NCBI GenBank assembly: GCA_036722795.1
Contig: DAIMIK010000001.1
Location: forward strand, 13 to 64,012
Direction: 5' to 3'
From: Acidimicrobiales bacterium
GTDB taxonomy: Bacteria; Actinomycetota; Acidimicrobiia; Acidimicrobiales; RAAP-2
Length of the DNA stretch: 64,000 bases
In this document: in pieces, positions 2,824-9,571 of the stretch
How the letters are laid out: each line of letters begins with the position of its first letter
Position numbering within the stretch: the first letter of the stretch is position 1
Position numbers and translations under genes: made by a program
Notes under the pieces: generated by a model
Seen by the model: only the letters and a program-made list of their open reading frames with translations
Database searches by the model: none
Told to the model about the DNA's origin: nothing

Positions 2824-3510
2824 ATGACCGACCGACCGATCGGGCCGGCGAGCATCACCATCACCGAGAACGGCCCGTACCTGGCCACCGGGGGCCTGCC
2901 GGTGGTCCGGCGTCGCATGGTGGCGTCGGAGCATGGGGAGCCCATGACCTGGGAGACCACAAGTGCTGTGGACGCCCCTGATGCGGTGGCGCTGTGCCGG
3001 TGCGGGCAATCGGACGACAAGCCGTTCTGCGATGGATCGCACGTGGCGGCCGGCTTCGACGGGACGGAGACAGCGGAGGCTTCGACGTACGACCAGCGTC
3101 AGACGACCTACCCGGCCACCGGAATCGTGATGAGGGACGATCGCTCGATCTGCCAGCATGCGGGCTTCTGCGGCAATCGGATCACCAATGTGTGGAAGAT
3201 GGTCCGTGGCGACGACACGGAGGACACGGTGACGCGGGCCCACCTGATGGCCATGATCGAACGATGCCCGTCGGGTGCGCTGACCTTCCGATTGGCCGAG
3301 GGCGGGGCCGACATCGAACCGGAGCTCCGGTCGGAGATCGGCGTGGTCGACGACGGGCCACTGTTCGTCACCGGAGGGGTACCCGTGCGCCGGGCGGATG
3401 GGCAGGAGATGGAAGCCCGGAACCGGATGACGCTGTGCCGGTGCGGGGGATCGGGCAACAAGCCGTTCTGTGACGGCTCGCACAAGGAGAATGGATTCGC
3501 GGACTCCTGA
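2824..3510 (+). CDS. CDGSH iron-sulfur domain protein (CDGSH, divergent 4Fe-4S mono-cluster-like domain, CDGSH)
   Basis: This is the C-terminal 228 aa of ORF 1435..3510, starting at ATG 2824 (MTDRPIGP). It carries two CRCGxSxxKPFCDGSH motifs. Between them is a central CQHAGFC...ERCPSGAL segment. Confidence 0.85.
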   Translation: MTDRPIGPASITITENGPYLATGGLPVVRRRMVASEHGEPMTWETTSAVDAPDAVALCRCGQSDDKPFCDGSHVAAGFDGTETAEASTYDQRQTTYPATGIVMRDDRSICQHAGFCGNRITNVWKMVRGDDTEDTVTRAHLMAMIERCPSGALTFRLAEGGADIEPELRSEIGVVDDGPLFVTGGVPVRRADGQEMEARNRMTLCRCGGSGNKPFCDGSHKENGFADS

Positions 3511-3613
3511 CCGTGGACCCCACCCCGGGACGGCCGACGGGGGTGGTCGCCCGGCGGGGCACGATCCGCGTCCGTGCGCCGGGATCGGTCGACCACCTGC
3601 ACCCCCGAGCACC

Positions 3614-4153
3614 GTGGACGGTAGCGTTCCCACCGTGATCGACGACCCGCTGGTGGCCGAAGCAGTGCATGACACCGGTATCCGACGGCTCCAGCATGCC
3701 TACGCCGACGTCGTCAATCGCCGGGCATGGCCCGAGCTGGAGCGGCTGTTCCTCAACGACGCCCCCGTCGTCATCGACCGGCATGCCGGCGAGCCGCTCC
3801 GACTTGTCGGAGCACTGGCGCTCGGCGAGTTCATCGGGTCGTCCATCGAGCAGTTCGAGTTCTTCGAGTTCGTCGTCCTCAACGCCCACATCGCCTTCCC
3901 CCAGGGGGCGGAGGCCGGCACCGCCGTGTGCCGCCTCTTCATGTGCGAGATCCGCCAGCACCAGGCCAGCGGTCGGTGGACGAACGCGTATGGCCTCTAC
4001 CACGACCGCTATGCGTTTACCGCGAGTCGCTGGTGGTTCGCCGAACGGAGGTACCACTCCCTGGCCCGCCACGGGAACGAACTGGAGGTCTTCCCGTTTC
4101 CCCGTCAACCGGGCATCGAGGTGCCGGGGATGGGACCGACGGGCGATCGCTAG
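3614..4153 (+). CDS. SnoaL-like / NTF2-family protein
   Basis: Lies within ORF 3470..4153. The size and pattern (IRRLQHAYADVVNRRAWPELERLF...RWWFAERRY) are typical of SnoaL_4-like proteins. The start is uncertain (GTG at 3614 or 3635). Confidence 0.5.
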   Translation: MDGSVPTVIDDPLVAEAVHDTGIRRLQHAYADVVNRRAWPELERLFLNDAPVVIDRHAGEPLRLVGALALGEFIGSSIEQFEFFEFVVLNAHIAFPQGAEAGTAVCRLFMCEIRQHQASGRWTNAYGLYHDRYAFTASRWWFAERRYHSLARHGNELEVFPFPRQPGIEVPGMGPTGDR

Positions 4154-4232
4154 GCCATCCCCGGCCGGCGGGTCCCCGGGGCCGGGCACTGCATCATCGA
4201 CGGAGGCCCGCCGTCATGGGAGCATCGTGGCC

Positions 4233-4706
4233 ATGCCGCTCCTCTTGGTCCGCCATGCCAACGCCGGGCGCCGAAGCGCCTACACGGGCGACGACCGCGT
4301 GCGCCCGCTGTCCTCGAGGGGGCTGGCCCAGGCTGATGGGCTGGTGCCCCTGTTGAAGGGCTATCGGCCCCGGCGGATCCTGAGCAGTCCCTACGTCCGC
4401 TGCTGCGAGACGGTGCGCCCCCTGTCCGAGGCCCTGGCCCTGCCCGTCGAGACCGTGGACGCGTTGGCCGAAGGACACGGGTCCGAGACGCTGCGACTGA
4501 TGGACCGGATGGCCGGCGAGTCGGCGGTCCTGTGCACCCACGGGGACGTCGCCCTCGAGGTGCTGGACGCCCTCGCCGGGCAGCGACCGGCAAAGGTGCG
4601 TCAGTCGCTTCGGCTCCAGAAGGGCGAGGTGTGGGTGGTCCAGTCGGCGGGCACCTCGCTCTCCATCGTCGAGCACCTCCCGCAGGTGGCCGGCAGGGAC
4701 CGGTAG
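4233..4706 (+). CDS. Histidine phosphatase family protein (SixA-like)
   Basis: Tail of ORF 3669..4706. The N-terminus LLLVRHANAG carries the RHG-type catalytic motif, and a second His sits in CTHGDV. Length is 157 aa. Confidence 0.7.
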   Translation: MPLLLVRHANAGRRSAYTGDDRVRPLSSRGLAQADGLVPLLKGYRPRRILSSPYVRCCETVRPLSEALALPVETVDALAEGHGSETLRLMDRMAGESAVLCTHGDVALEVLDALAGQRPAKVRQSLRLQKGEVWVVQSAGTSLSIVEHLPQVAGRDR

Positions 4707-4762
4707 CCGGCGCCGGGCCACCGGCCGCCGCTCGGGGCACCGGCCGCTACGCTCAGGGCGCG

Positions 4763-6124
4763 ATGAACGACCAGAACCGGTTCGACCCGGGCTCCGTCGG
4801 CACGTTCCGGGTGCTCGACCGATCGTTCGACCGTGCATCGAGGACGCTCTCGCTCGGGTACGCCCTCGACGATGTCGTTTCGTTCACCGAGACCATCACC
4901 TTCGAGACGCCGCCCGGTGCCGAGGGGGGTACCGACGCCACAGGATTCGATCGGGCGCTCTTGCATCTCCACATTGCTGCCGGGACCAGCTACTACAAGG
5001 CTGCCGCCCCCCCGGTGATCCTGCTGGAGCACGAAGGGCTGACCGCCGCAGAGCAGGAGTTCCATCGGAGCCTCTACGACCACGGGCTCCGGGAGTTCGC
5101 GGTGGCGAACGGCCTCCCCGTGCCCCGTGCGGTGGAGATCGAGCAGCGCTCGACCGCCGTCGAGCCGCCCCGGCCGACGGACCCCCGGCGACCCGGGGGC
5201 CTGCTGGTCCCGATCGGGGGTGGCAAGGACTCGATGGTGCTCATCGAGGCGGTACGGGACCTGGCCCCCAGGCTGTTCGCGGTCAATCCCCATCCCCTGG
5301 TGCTCGAACTGGCCCGCCAGACCGGGCTCGAGCTCATCGTCGTCCGCCGCCGGCTCTCCCCGGAGTTGGCCGCACTCAACCGTGCCGGTGCCCTCAACGG
5401 CCATGTCCCGATCACCGCCATCGTGTCCCTCGTCGCGGTAGCCGGGAGCTTCCTCTACGGGTACGACACCATCGCCATGGCCGTCGAGCGCTCTGCCAGC
5501 GAGGAGACGGTGGTGGTGGGCGGTGTGCCGGTCAACCACCAGTACTCGAAGAGCCTCGACTTCGAGCACCTGCTGCAAGGCCTGATCGCCGGGACCATCG
5601 ACCCCGGCCTGATCTATGGTTCGGCCCTGCGGCCCTACTCCGAGCTGGCCATCGCCCGTACCTTCGCCGGGCTCACCGGGTATCACGCCACCTTCTGCAG
5701 CTGCAACACCGTGTTCCGCCAGTCGGCGGGAGCCGACGACGGGTGGTGCGGGGACTGCCCGAAATGCCGCTTCGTGGCACTGATGCTGGCGCCGTTCCTG
5801 AGCCCCGAGGCGGTGACGGCGATCATCGGCCGCGATCTGTTCGCCGATCCCCTCCAGGTGGCCGGGTTTGCCGCCCTCATGAGCGACCGGGACAAGCCGT
5901 TCGAGTGCGTCGGGGAGCGGCGGGAGTCGGCCGCGGCCATGAGGGTCCTGAACGGGCTGCCACCGTGGAGGGAGACGGTGGTCGTGTCCTCGCTGGGCCG
6001 GGTGGCTGCGGACATGGTGTCGGACCGGGAGGTCACCGCCTTGTTGACCCCCGACTCGGCACTGGCGTTCCCGGACCCGGAGGTGGCGGCCGCGGTGGGT
6101 CGCCTGTTGACGGCGACGCCGTGA
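4763..6124 (+). CDS. murL: PP-loop ATPase-like protein, candidate MurL (UDP-MurNAc-L-Ala-L-Glu epimerase) homologue
   Basis: ATG at 4763 within ORF 4532..6124. Has a PP-loop-like LLVPIGGGKDS and a C-terminal Cys cluster (FCSCN...WCGDCPKCRF). Its stop overlaps the GTG start of a MurD-type ligase (GTGA at 6121-6124). The family assignment rests on memory of the Xanthomonas MurD2/MurL pair and was not searched. Confidence 0.5.
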   Translation: MNDQNRFDPGSVGTFRVLDRSFDRASRTLSLGYALDDVVSFTETITFETPPGAEGGTDATGFDRALLHLHIAAGTSYYKAAAPPVILLEHEGLTAAEQEFHRSLYDHGLREFAVANGLPVPRAVEIEQRSTAVEPPRPTDPRRPGGLLVPIGGGKDSMVLIEAVRDLAPRLFAVNPHPLVLELARQTGLELIVVRRRLSPELAALNRAGALNGHVPITAIVSLVAVAGSFLYGYDTIAMAVERSASEETVVVGGVPVNHQYSKSLDFEHLLQGLIAGTIDPGLIYGSALRPYSELAIARTFAGLTGYHATFCSCNTVFRQSAGADDGWCGDCPKCRFVALMLAPFLSPEAVTAIIGRDLFADPLQVAGFAALMSDRDKPFECVGERRESAAAMRVLNGLPPWRETVVVSSLGRVAADMVSDREVTALLTPDSALAFPDPEVAAAVGRLLTATP

Positions 6125-7518
6125 CCCTCGACGAGCTGGTCACCTGTCGGGTGGCGGTCTGGGGCCTCGGGCAGGAGGGCCTGGCCATGGTCGCACTCCT
6201 CCGAGACCGAGGGGTGGAGCCGGTGCTGATCGACGACCATCCGGAGATCGCCACCGACCGGGTGGCCCGCCGGCCGGCCGGCCCGGCGGACGTGGTCACC
6301 CCCGCCTCGATGCGGTGGGCCGATGTGGACGTGGTGGTCCGTTCCCCGGGGGTGAGCCGGTATCGCCCGGAACTGCTGGGCGCCGAGGGATCCGGCGTGT
6401 CGGTGACCACGGCCATGGCCCTCTGGCTCGAGGACTTCGCCGACGCCCGGGTGGTGGCCATCACCGGCACCAAGGGGAAGAGCACCACCGCTGCGCTCAT
6501 CGCGGCGATCCTCGGGCACGACGGATCGGAGGTGGCCCTGTGCGGCAACATCGGGGTCCCGGTCACCGAGATGTACGGCCGGCCCCCGGCCGACGCCTAC
6601 GTCGTCGAGGTCTCCTCGTACCAGGCGGCCGACGTCACGGTCACCCCCGGGGTGTGCGTGCTGACCAGTCTGGCTGCCGATCATCTCGACTGGCACGGCG
6701 GTGAGGAGTCGTACTACCGCGACAAGCTGCGGTTGCTCGAGGCCGGTCCCCCGGGGGAGCTGGCGGTGAGCGCGGCGAGCCCTGAGGCGCTGAAGCGCAC
6801 GGAAGGCCATCCCCACCGTACGCTCTACGGCCCCGCCGGCCGGGTGCGGCTGGCTCCGTCCGGAATGGTGGAGCTCGACGGCGAGCCGTTGGTCGAAGCC
6901 GGGATGCTGCGCACGCCGGGCCGCCACAATGTGTGGAATCTGTGCGGTGCGATCACGGCCACGTTGCTGCTGGACGGGCATGCCCCGTCCACATGGGCGG
7001 TGGCGGCGGCCGTGGACGGGTTCGCCGGGCTGCCCTCGCGCTGTCATACCATCGGTGAGCGCCACGGGCTCACCTTCGTCGATGACGCCCTGGCATCGAA
7101 TCCGTTCGCTGCGGCGGCCTCGGTCGACGCCTACCCCGGCCGTGAGCTGACGGTGATCCTGGGTGGCGCCGACCGTGGCGTGGACCCTGCAGTGCTGGTG
7201 GATGCGCTGGTCGACCGGATACCGGCTCCCCGGGTGATCGTCCTCCCCCCGGACTCGCGACGGCTGGTCGACGCCATCACCTCCGCCGCTGGTGGGGGCC
7301 GACCCACGGCGACGGTGCACACGGCAGAGGATCTCGACGCCGCGGTGCGGGCGGCGGCGGCGTCGACCCCGGTCGGGGGAGTGGTGCTCTTCTCCCCCGG
7401 TGCCCCCACTCCCGAGGGTGGGGGGGGATTCGGCGAGCGCAGCCGCCAGTTCGCGGAAGCCGCCGGGCTGGCCGGCCCGGAGCGTCGCCCGCGCCCCGAC
7501 GCATCGGGGGTGGGTTGA
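6121..7518 (+). CDS. murD: MurD-type Mur ligase (UDP-MurNAc-L-Ala:glutamate ligase; MurD2-like given the partner gene)
   Basis: GTG at 6121 within ORF 5743..7518. The N-terminus is Rossmann-like (VAVWGLGQEG). The P-loop is AITGTKGKSTT. The C-terminus (FSPGAPTPEGGGGFGERSRQF) resembles the MurD SPAxASxDxFxNxxxRG region. Confidence 0.8.
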   Translation: MTLDELVTCRVAVWGLGQEGLAMVALLRDRGVEPVLIDDHPEIATDRVARRPAGPADVVTPASMRWADVDVVVRSPGVSRYRPELLGAEGSGVSVTTAMALWLEDFADARVVAITGTKGKSTTAALIAAILGHDGSEVALCGNIGVPVTEMYGRPPADAYVVEVSSYQAADVTVTPGVCVLTSLAADHLDWHGGEESYYRDKLRLLEAGPPGELAVSAASPEALKRTEGHPHRTLYGPAGRVRLAPSGMVELDGEPLVEAGMLRTPGRHNVWNLCGAITATLLLDGHAPSTWAVAAAVDGFAGLPSRCHTIGERHGLTFVDDALASNPFAAAASVDAYPGRELTVILGGADRGVDPAVLVDALVDRIPAPRVIVLPPDSRRLVDAITSAAGGGRPTATVHTAEDLDAAVRAAAASTPVGGVVLFSPGAPTPEGGGGFGERSRQFAEAAGLAGPERRPRPDASGVG

Positions 7519-7568
7519 CAGCGGCCGGGAGCCACGGCAACGGTGGGGACGGAACCGGGAGGAGCGTC

Positions 7569-8624
7569 GTGACCCAGATCACCATCACCGCCGAGGGGGT
7601 GCGGACCGTCGAGGCGACGCCCGACCCGGCTCGTGGCACGTTCCTCATCGATGCCGACCGGCTCCCCGATGTCCTCGGGTGGGAGTTGAAGCCGAGCGGC
7701 CTGTGCCGGGAGGGCACCTGCGTGCCGGTGGCCGACGTCGGCTCGTTGACGGTGGGGGAGCGGCTCGACGTGGCTGCGGTCGCAGGCGCGCTCGGCCGGC
7801 CGGCTGTCGTCGACGTCGGTGCGGGGCTGATGGCGGTCGCTCTGCCCGCCGGGCTGAGGCGGCAGGCGCTCGAGGATCTTCGCGCCCCGGCGTTCGAGCT
7901 GCCCGGCCTCGACGGGAGGCTGCACCGGTTGGACGAATGGATCGGGACGAAGAAGCTGCTGGTCACCTTCGCGAGCTGGTGTGGCTGTCGCTACGACCTG
8001 CCGGGCTGGCAGGCCCTCCACGACGAGTTGCGCCCGTTCGGGTTCACGGTCGTCGCGGTGGCCATCGACCACAGTGCGGACGATGTCCGGCCGTTCGCGG
8101 ACGGGATTACCATGCCGGTCCTCTACGACCCCAACCATGTGCTGACCGAGTTGTACGCCATCTCCAACGTGCCCACCGTGGTGTGGATCGACGAGGAGGA
8201 TCGCATCGCACGGCCCAACGGAGAAGCCTTCGGCACTGACACGTTCTCCGACTTCACCGGCGTGAAGGCCGCCCCCCACCTCGACGAGGTCCGGCGGTGG
8301 GTGCGGGAGGGAGTGGTCCCGGTCACCGAGGAGGAGGCCCGCCACGCCGTGGGTGATCTCTCCGAAGACGAGGTGGTGGCGCGCCTCCACTTCCGGGTGG
8401 CCGCCGAGGCGCACCGCCGGGGGAACGAGGAAGCCACCCGGCGCCACGTGGCGCGGGCCTCGGAGCTGGCACCGGACGATCTGACCATCTGGCGGGCGGG
8501 CATGGCGCTGGTCGGCGAGGACCCGTTCGGCGATGCCTTCTTCGTCAGGTACGAGGAGTGGAGGCAGAAGGGGAGCCCGTTCCACGGCCTCCCCGCGGTC
8601 AGTGGTCCCGAGCCCGCGACCTGA
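7569..8624 (+). CDS. Thioredoxin-fold (TlpA/ResA/redoxin-like) protein with an N-terminal Cys-containing domain and a helical C-terminal domain
   Basis: Lies within ORF 7515..8624. GTG at 7569 is preceded by GGGAGGAG. The redoxin core is LLVTFASWCGCRYD...VVAVAID...NVPTVVWID, and the active-site motif is CGC rather than CxxC. An alternative TTG start at 7515 overlaps the murD stop. Confidence 0.7.
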   Translation: MTQITITAEGVRTVEATPDPARGTFLIDADRLPDVLGWELKPSGLCREGTCVPVADVGSLTVGERLDVAAVAGALGRPAVVDVGAGLMAVALPAGLRRQALEDLRAPAFELPGLDGRLHRLDEWIGTKKLLVTFASWCGCRYDLPGWQALHDELRPFGFTVVAVAIDHSADDVRPFADGITMPVLYDPNHVLTELYAISNVPTVVWIDEEDRIARPNGEAFGTDTFSDFTGVKAAPHLDEVRRWVREGVVPVTEEEARHAVGDLSEDEVVARLHFRVAAEAHRRGNEEATRRHVARASELAPDDLTIWRAGMALVGEDPFGDAFFVRYEEWRQKGSPFHGLPAVSGPEPAT

Positions 8625-8706
8625 TCCCGGGCGCCGGGGACGCCGACCCGGTCCCCCGGCCCGCTCCGGTGGACGGGTCTGCGCCGTCGGTGCGGCGGCA
8701 GGGGGC

Positions 8707-9189
8707 CTACTGCAGGGTCCGCCGGGCGTGTTGCAGCACGAATTCGAGGATCTCGATGTGCTTGGCCGTGTCCATCTCCATCAGCTTGACCAGCAGCTGC
8801 CACAGGGTGGTGTCCTTGACCTCCCTCAGGTGGCTGACCAGGCGACGCAATTCCTTGGCGTCGGCACGTTCCCGCTCCAGGAGTTCCTCGGTCGTCCGGA
8901 CGACGTGGGCCGTGTCCGGCCCCCAGTGATCGAGGCGGGGCACCACCGGCTCCTCGGGACGCAGCTCGGCATCCGTCTTCAGCGCGGATGCCAGCTCCAC
9001 GAACACCCGATGGTGGCGGATCTCGTCCTCGACGATGAGGGCGCTGAGATAGCGGAATGCGCTCGACCCGGAGCTTGTGGCGGCCTCCTGGTACTCGTCC
9101 AGCACCTCACGCTCGCTCTGCTCGTGAGAGGTGAGGAACTCGTACAGCTCCTCTTCCCAAACGCTCGCGCCTACCAGCTTCGTCGCCAC
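8707..9189 (-). CDS. Ferritin-like / four-helix-bundle domain protein
   Basis: C-terminal 160 aa of ORF 8707..9393. GTG at 9189 is preceded by GGAGGAGG. Has paired E...EDEIRHH and MEMDTAKHIE motifs reminiscent of di-iron ferritin-like folds. Confidence 0.45.
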   Translation of the reverse strand: MATKLVGASVWEEELYEFLTSHEQSEREVLDEYQEAATSSGSSAFRYLSALIVEDEIRHHRVFVELASALKTDAELRPEEPVVPRLDHWGPDTAHVVRTTEELLERERADAKELRRLVSHLREVKDTTLWQLLVKLMEMDTAKHIEILEFVLQHARRTLQ

Positions 9190-9228
9190 GGGTCCTCCTC
9201 CATCCGGTCTCGAGGGATCGTAGCCGCC

Positions 9229-9260
9229 CTGGCCCACGACGATACGGGCTGATGGGCCAG
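9229..9260. promoter_or_regulatory. Inverted repeat CTGGCCCA-N16-TGGGCCAG
   Basis: It lies in the divergent region between the ferritin-like gene (start 9189) and the ferredoxin gene (start 9362). Confidence 0.25.
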
Positions 9261-9361
9261 TTGTCGGCGGTGGTGAACGGATGGAGCGCCGGTGGGGGAA
9301 TCCCCGGTTCCCGTGTCCGGGCTGGCTAGCGTCCGCGGGGAGGGGACACAAGGAGCGCGAG

Positions 9362-9571
9362 ATGCAGGTCCGGATCGACATGGAGAAGTGCACGGGACAT
9401 GGACGGTGCTACACCTTGGCGCCCTCCGTGTTCGGCTCCGATGACAGCGGGTTCGGGAATCTCCTCCACGAGGGGGATCTCGATCCTTCAGTGGAGCGCG
9501 AGGCCGAGCTGGCCGCTGCCAACTGCCCCGAGGGTGCCGTGGAGCTCCGTGCCACACCTCAGGACGGGTGA
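9362..9571 (+). CDS. Small single-cluster ferredoxin (3Fe-4S/4Fe-4S, P450-partner type)
   Basis: ATG at 9362 follows AAGGAG. The cluster motif is MEKCTGHGRC...CPEGAV. Length is 69 aa. Confidence 0.8.
   Translation: MQVRIDMEKCTGHGRCYTLAPSVFGSDDSGFGNLLHEGDLDPSVEREAELAAANCPEGAVELRATPQDG

Follow-up and report, generated by a model that had tools for sequence, protein, structure and literature searches.

The stretch of DNA analysed here (the window; 64,000 nucleotides of contig DAIMIK010000001.1, from the Acidimicrobiales bacterium assembly GCA_036722795.1) carries, between positions 4763 and 7518, two overlapping genes that we read as murL and murD2, a pair that is probably the organism's only source of the D-glutamate (D-Glu) in its peptidoglycan stem peptide. 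The MurL/MurD2 pathway has been known since Feng et al. 2017 and has been reviewed (PMC8788868, PMC5808125). In Xanthomonas oryzae MAFF311018, MurD2 is XOO_1320, the ligase that puts in L-Glu, and MurL is XOO_1319, which then carries out a one-way epimerisation to D-Glu, spending one ATP and releasing AMP (PMC8788868, PMC5808125), and hosts of the pair have neither murI nor the D-amino-acid transaminase Dat (PMC8788868). The source assembly has 2.37 Mb in 148 contigs, 69.7% GC and a completeness estimate of 75%. The pair has the following features.

4763..6124, forward strand: murL (protein P0001, 453 aa), start ATG at 4763, stop TGA at 6122-6124
5216..5233, forward strand: GGGKDS (P0001 residues 152-157), a PP-loop-type nucleotide-binding motif, invariant in the family with K in at least 90%
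5693..5767, forward strand: Cys cluster FCSCN (residues 311-315) ... WCGDCPKC (328-335), with C314, C329, C332 and C335 invariant in the MurL alignment
6121..6124, forward strand: GTGA overlap of the murD2 start GTG and the murL stop TGA, consistent with translational coupling
6121..7518, forward strand: murD2 (protein P0002, 465 aa), a MurD-family UDP-MurNAc-L-Ala:glutamate ligase with presumed L-Glu specificity, start GTG at 6121, stop TGA at 7516-7518

A sequence-only reading of this DNA had described a 453-aa reading frame that ends in the GTGA start of a MurD-type ligase, and the coordinates, the lengths and the junction all proved correct; the motifs it quoted (GGGKDS, CxCN...CGDCPKC, GLGQEG, the P-loop and the SPGAP tail) were each located in the translations. 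The junction GTGACCCTCGACGA recurs in seven other Acidimicrobiales loci, with a single-base difference in two of them, and the overlap is therefore not a matter of chance.

The only match of P0001 in NCBIfam was the MurL model NF041275 (E 5.6e-112, 374 bits; residues 9-437 on model positions 4-436 of 447). The local Pfam copy gave no match to P0001, and a database entry identical to it carries PF26298 and PF26299, apparently newer Pfam models. All 40 invariant columns of a diverse 31-sequence MurL alignment, whose members are 33-64% identical to P0001, are kept in it, as are the family-invariant motifs GGG.DS, NGH.P, E242, NHQ.SK, SCN, WC..C.KC and C..G...E, and its N-terminus, MNDQNRFDPGS, agrees with those of homologues. 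Among the candidates scored, 5898 clusters reached E <=1e-5, and of the representatives of clusters formed at 50% identity, 1067 had E <=1e-30. The closest homologues belong to metagenome-assembled genomes (MAGs) under the label Acidimicrobiales or Acidimicrobiaceae, and the isolate names of several refer to bog or palsa; some metagenome homologues had already been named as this epimerase by IMG.

The ligase, P0002, has the Pfam domains MurD-like_N, Mur_ligase_M and Mur_ligase_C and the motifs GLGQEG (15-20), GTKGKST (116-122) and SPGAPTP...FGERSRQF (425-444). It scores 240 bits on the murD equivalog TIGR01087 (cut-off 212), a model that does not tell MurD from MurD2. In a tree from a quick maximum-likelihood (ML) search, P0002 fell inside a murL-linked clade (Shimodaira-Hasegawa-like approximate likelihood ratio test, SH-aLRT, 98) with ligases of Micromonospora, Dyella, Rhodanobacter, Frateuria and Pseudoxanthomonas, and outside the canonical clade (SH-aLRT 98), which comprised the other Acidimicrobiia MurDs and E. 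coli MurD; within the murL-linked group the window's own clade branches apart from Micromonosporaceae. Grouping with canonical MurD, which would have spoken for an ordinary enzyme, was thus not what we found, and the position of P0002 indicates that the ligase does not descend from the ordinary murD of the class.

Several side observations concern the homologues. MurL and MurD2 of MAGs labelled Acidimicrobiaceae or Acidimicrobiales are 64-89% identical to those of the window. Several MurL homologues (P0005, P0021, P0032, P0041, P0112) bear the NCBI name 'endonuclease domain-containing protein', an apparent misannotation. One protein from the representative search, P0237 (918 aa), combines an aspartate kinase with MurL, the latter at residues 478-916, and it may be either a real fusion joining the diaminopimelate/lysine branch to stem-peptide synthesis or a gene-calling artefact.

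D-glutamate genes in the genome and in the class

The assembly-wide search for the murD class gave one match over the cut-off, P0002 itself; of the remaining matches, two on contig C83 are murC and murE, one on C37 is a MurF-like gene, and one on C34 is weak. Contig C83, which is not the window's own, holds the division and cell wall (dcw) cluster, in the order pbp-murE-mraY-ftsW-murG-murC-murB-ftsQ, and the gap between mraY and ftsW is at most 69 bp, so that the usual murD slot is empty. The sequence-only reading had placed the pair outside any dcw context, which is correct, and had taken the ligase for a second, non-dcw copy of murD, which is not: a single murD match together with the empty slot means that P0002 is the assembly's only murD. 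Nor did the assembly contain a match to murI (TIGR00067) or to the Asp/Glu racemase superfamily (PF01177), or a Dat (TIGR01121) over the cut-off, the one class-IV aminotransferase being far below it. With these searches, the genome check that the earlier reading had proposed found no murI, no D-amino-acid transaminase and no dcw murD in the assembly.

The class survey covered 151 Acidimicrobiia genomes. A strong MurL match was present in eight of them, namely the window's genome, three genomes of family f1 and four of family f23; a ninth had a weak MurL match of 80 bits and possessed murI. All eight genomes with strong MurL matches were without murI, which was present in 102 of the others. Relatives with the pair that are 91-99% complete (three at 97-99%) likewise gave no murI and no Dat over the cut-off. 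Each surveyed genome with a listed murD had one copy (in one case split into two rows), and in the six MurL genomes whose ligase was above the search threshold this single murD directly adjoins murL and scores 177-286 bits on TIGR01087, on which full-length canonical Acidimicrobiia copies score 324-411 bits. The ligases of two f23 genomes were under the threshold in the survey and were later recovered adjoining murL. At the canonical Acidimicrobiia murD loci that were fetched, mraY adjoins murD in 30/30 and ftsW lies on the other side in 28/30, the remaining two loci being truncated.

Beyond the class, we compared 80 murL loci from Actinomycetota, Pseudomonadota, Chloroflexota and others, and a murD homologue lies directly downstream in nearly all that have sufficient flank. 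Further, three long proteins are MurL-MurD fusions with MurL N-terminal, the same order as in the operon.

Some genomes of the survey show further features of their own. In the window's GTDB family, three loci (L119-L121; G029, G135, G119) encode MurL and MurD2 that are just 34-38% identical to the window's proteins, and this divergence within f1 suggests that the pair either evolves fast or was acquired more than once inside the family. The genomes of family f13, genus g26 (G005, G011, G017, G022, G045, G057, G061, G069, G073, G089; L126-L128), are 1.0-1.1 Mb in size and have one short murD (~400 aa) with canonical K319/K348 and no murI; the family profile found no divergent MurL in them at E 1e-3, and they have an additional class-IV aminotransferase, which reaches 125-145 bits on the Dat model (cut-off 277). 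Two genomes of the window's order, G079 (f6, L129; 100% complete) and G147 (f7, L130; 97%), have a canonical-type murD (K319/K348) and gave neither a murI nor a MurL match. In the window's own genome the dcw cluster (C83 ~5230-8297) is also without murF between murE and mraY, and the sole MurF-like gene, at C37:18288-20977 (L004), encodes a protein with an apparent long N-terminal extension and hydrophobic, membrane-like segments before the ligase domain.

The glutamate pocket of the ligase

The alignment comprised 62 murL-linked ligases, 22 canonical Acidimicrobiia MurDs with E. coli MurD (canonical n = 23), and P0002. The catalytic residues K115, N138, E157, H183 and K198 (E. coli numbering, used below for all positions) are common to all of them, P0002 included. 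Four sites of the pocket are of interest in P0002.

6679..6681, forward strand: Asp187, at E. coli D182 and X. oryzae MurD2 E197, a canonical-type residue
7090..7092, forward strand: Leu324, at E. coli K319 by alignment, the Lys being lost
7174..7176, forward strand: Arg352, at E. coli K348 and X. oryzae R358 by alignment, the latter a published L-Glu determinant
7405..7413, forward strand: Pro429-Thr430-Pro431, at E. coli A414-S415-L416 by alignment, in the Glu-binding loop

The stereospecificity of X. oryzae MurD2 is set by E197 and R358 (E. coli D182 and K348) and not by P433/F435; E197D alone alters it toward D-Glu, E197D with R358K switches it fully to D-Glu, and E. coli MurD K319T gains the use of L-Glu (PMC8788868). 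In our alignment position 348 is Arg in 62/62 murL-linked ligases and Lys in 23/23 canonical ones, position 319 is Ile, Leu or Phe in 62/62 against Lys in 23/23, and position 414 is Pro in 59/62 against Ala in 23/23. P0002 follows the murL-linked pattern at all three, its motif DDALASN covering positions 319 and 321. Position 182 is Glu in 51/62 and Asp in 11/62 of the murL-linked ligases and Asp in 23/23 of the canonical ones. Of the two published determinants, therefore, P0002 has the Arg (Arg352) and lacks the Glu, having Asp187 in its place. Asp at this position also occurs in the f1 relatives and Cys in family f23, and so Glu at 182 is not universal among murL-linked ligases. In the window's clade, Asp at 182 covaries with Ser321, Thr415 and Pro416, and the Thr-Pro pair at 415-416 is specific to this Acidimicrobiales clade.

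These residues raise the question of whether MurD2 here has relaxed or dual stereospecificity, accepting both L- and D-Glu, with MurL rescuing only the L-Glu product. The Asp of the window's clade and the Cys of f23 at position 182, the effect of E197D alone and the full switch to D-Glu by E197D with R358K in X. oryzae (PMC8788868), and the covarying changes T321S, S415T and Pro416 in the Glu pocket would all suit such an enzyme. We consider it improbable all the same, since the enzyme still has Arg348 and no Lys319, no free D-Glu source was found in the assembly, and the pocket changes may be compensatory, with strict L-Glu use kept.

The f23 ligases (loci L122-L125; G104, G144, G030, G044) that are linked to murL and have Cys at position 182 are below the murD equivalog cut-off or undetected at the search threshold, and that of G044 has Ser in place of Arg at position 348.

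The predicted fold of MurL

MurL has been described as having no known domains, and substrate adenylation has been proposed for it as a hypothesis (PMC5808125). The AlphaFold2 model of P0001, with the family alignment as input, had a predicted local distance difference test (pLDDT) score of 93.7 and a predicted TM-score (pTM) of 0.94. Its best Foldseek match in the PDB was QatC of QatABCD (9y01_B; E 8.6e-5, probability 1.0), over 430 aligned columns with a TM-score of only 0.42-0.44, and the next matches were the PP-loop sulfurtransferases TtuA and TrmU. We take QatC to be a QueC-like PP-loop protein. In addition, the MurL family profile aligned GGGKDS on the SGGKDS PP-loop of TtuA PH0300, with a marginal E of 0.0036. 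The predicted fold and this weak profile match support a PP-loop-like fold for MurL, as the motif had suggested to the earlier reading. PP-loop enzymes turn ATP into AMP through an adenylated substrate, and some of them have a Cys-rich metal site. By analogy with QueC/TtuA-type enzymes, C314, C329, C332 and C335 form a probable metal site (Zn or Fe-S), and the predicted fold would fit the ATP-to-AMP stoichiometry reported for MurL (PMC8788868, PMC5808125).

At the level of sequence, P0001 gave no match in the PDB and none in PADLOC, the latter indicating no sequence-level kinship with QatC. No QueC, TtuA-type or other non-MurL family matched it in Pfam, NCBIfam or PADLOC; the MurL model was the sole family match, and no other PP-loop family fits it better. 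These results bear on the idea that P0002 is an ordinary D-Glu MurD whose gene has left the dcw cluster, that P0001 is a PP-loop enzyme of some other role (nucleoside or tRNA modification, QueC-like), and that a racemase lies in the unassembled 25% of the genome. The 75% completeness, the score of P0002 above the murD equivalog cut-off, the Asp at 182 and the solved folds nearest to P0001 (QatC and TtuA) are compatible with that idea. We regard it as very unlikely, given that P0001 matches no family but MurL in sequence, that near-complete relatives with the pair are also without murI, that P0002 groups with the murL-linked ligases and shares with them Arg348, Leu319 and Pro414, which occur in 0/23 of the canonical MurDs aligned, and that MurL-MurD fusion proteins exist.

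A more speculative reading, which we consider less likely than not, is that the published Glu197/Arg358 rule is not general and that the Acidimicrobiia pocket may be built differently, possibly with relaxed L/D discrimination; the universal signature would then be Arg348 together with the loss of Lys319. On the same reading MurL would combine a PP-loop fold with a Cys4 metal site, and these could provide a structural basis for its ATP-to-AMP epimerisation.

The pair in its surroundings and among known systems

The neighbouring genes of the pair with conserved positions are the following.

4206-4706, upstream of murL: histidine phosphatase gene, syntenic with the pair in eight close Acidimicrobiales loci
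7515-8624, downstream of murD2: thioredoxin-fold (AhpC/redoxin) gene, syntenic in five close loci

The start codon of the redoxin reading frame, TTG at 7515, overlaps the murD2 stop codon. The flanks of the pair encode a CDGSH iron-sulphur (Fe-S) protein, a SnoaL-like protein, the histidine phosphatase, the redoxin, a ferredoxin and acyl-CoA enzymes, and none of the flanking genes in the window is a cell-wall or division gene. Loci that share the phosphatase/redoxin synteny with murL-murD2 include L008, L010, L011, L012 and L019. A promoter and terminator scan of 3400-9400 gave no match, which is uninformative because the sequence is that of an actinobacterium with 70% GC.

An operon among redox and lipid-metabolism genes and not among wall genes, with the histidine phosphatase and an unusual redoxin syntenic in the clade, might make some other glutamyl conjugate (for example a secondary metabolite or a polymer other than peptidoglycan) and no peptidoglycan precursor. 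We find this barely credible, as the genome has kept murB, murC, murE, mraY, murG, ftsW and a penicillin-binding protein (PBP) with P0002 as its sole murD, and the wall pathway would be broken without it.

We therefore presume, with a probability of about 0.88 and on the strength of comparative sequence analysis, that the pair is a translationally coupled murL-murD2 operon that alone supplies the organism with D-Glu for the stem peptide and has taken the place of both MurI and the canonical dcw murD. The family match, the synteny and fusions across phyla, the quick tree, the Arg/Leu/Pro signature and the absence of murI, racemase and Dat support the proposed identity of MurL and an L-Glu-type MurD2. 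Several points weigh on the other side. With 374 bits, P0001 falls short of the 700 that NF041275, to judge from its name a Xanthomonadales model, sets as its equivalog cut-off. P0002 has Asp at the very position where E197D shifts X. oryzae MurD2 toward D-Glu (PMC8788868). The tree rests on a quick search only and took in congeners or relatives of the assayed enzymes, not the assayed sequences themselves. Substrates and chemistry are inferred from the X. oryzae, Micromonospora and Salinispora enzymes. With an assembly just 75% complete, the absence of murI from this genome alone is a weak argument, and the case leans for this reason on the complete relatives and the vacant dcw slot.

In the proposed mechanism, MurD2 (6121-7518) would first add L-Glu, and MurL (4763-6124), with its PP-loop fold, would then epimerise the residue at the expense of ATP: one ATP would be converted to AMP as the alpha-carboxylate of the terminal L-Glu is adenylated, a step that is hypothetical here as it is in the literature. 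MurE, encoded in the dcw cluster, would act next.

The system is of a known kind, and what is new is an Acidimicrobiia member with a variant residue at position 182; the locus leaves the pathway concept unchanged. The bypass has been presented as confined to a few genera, chiefly Xanthomonadales and Micromonosporaceae, and hence as a narrow-spectrum drug target. The published hosts comprise several Xanthomonadales genera, Devosia, Pelagibacterium, Parvularcula, Micromonospora, Actinoplanes, Verrucosispora and Salinispora, and Acidimicrobiia are missing from the list (PMC8788868). Some Acidimicrobiia homologues are already auto-annotated as this epimerase, though the class is absent from that list. 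Judging from the genomes surveyed, the host range appears wider: several lineages of uncultured Acidimicrobiia probably depend on the pair alone for D-Glu, and it occurs commonly in Solirubrobacterales and in many other MAGs (the 1067 cluster representatives at E <=1e-30, and 586 genome loci). For annotation, it matters that the murD equivalog model labels murL-linked ligases as D-Glu ligases. For enzymology, the natural variation at 182 and the pairing of Arg348 with a non-Lys residue at 319 refine the specificity rule drawn from the X. oryzae mutants.

In common with the X. oryzae system are the adjacency of murL to a murD-like gene, the lack of murI and Dat in the genome, a match to NF041275 over its full length, though under the equivalog cut-off, and a ligase with Arg at the R358 and Pro at the P433 positions; the window differs in having Asp at the E197 and Pro at the F435 positions, in belonging to another phylum (Actinomycetota, Acidimicrobiia) and in its overlapping stop and start codons. 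MurD2 relatives of Xanthomonadales/Lysobacterales fall in the same tree clade as P0002, but identity to the Xanthomonadales relatives is only ~40-45% for MurL and 33-40% for the ligase. Micromonospora, in which, as in Salinispora tropica, MurD2/MurL orthologues have been confirmed in vitro (PMC8788868), belongs to the same phylum, and one ligase from the genus (genome L081) is in the murL-linked clade and shares Leu319, Arg348 and Pro414; it has Glu182, Thr321 and Ser415 where the window has Asp, Ser and Thr, and in Micromonospora sp. NPDC018662 murL and murD2 are divergently oriented and do not overlap. The QatC/TtuA PP-loop enzymes are the best structural matches of the MurL model and have an SGGxDS-type loop that aligns with it, whereas the presumed substrate of MurL is a UDP-muramyl dipeptide and the outcome would be epimerisation, not amidation or thiolation. 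Finally, the canonical MurD of the E. coli type, found together with MurI in most Acidimicrobiia, has in common with P0002 the three-domain architecture, the catalytic residues and the pathway step; the canonical Acidimicrobiia MurD, in contrast, has the mraY-murD-ftsW position, 324-411 bits, K319/K348/A414 and an accompanying murI (102/151 genomes), none of which applies to the window.

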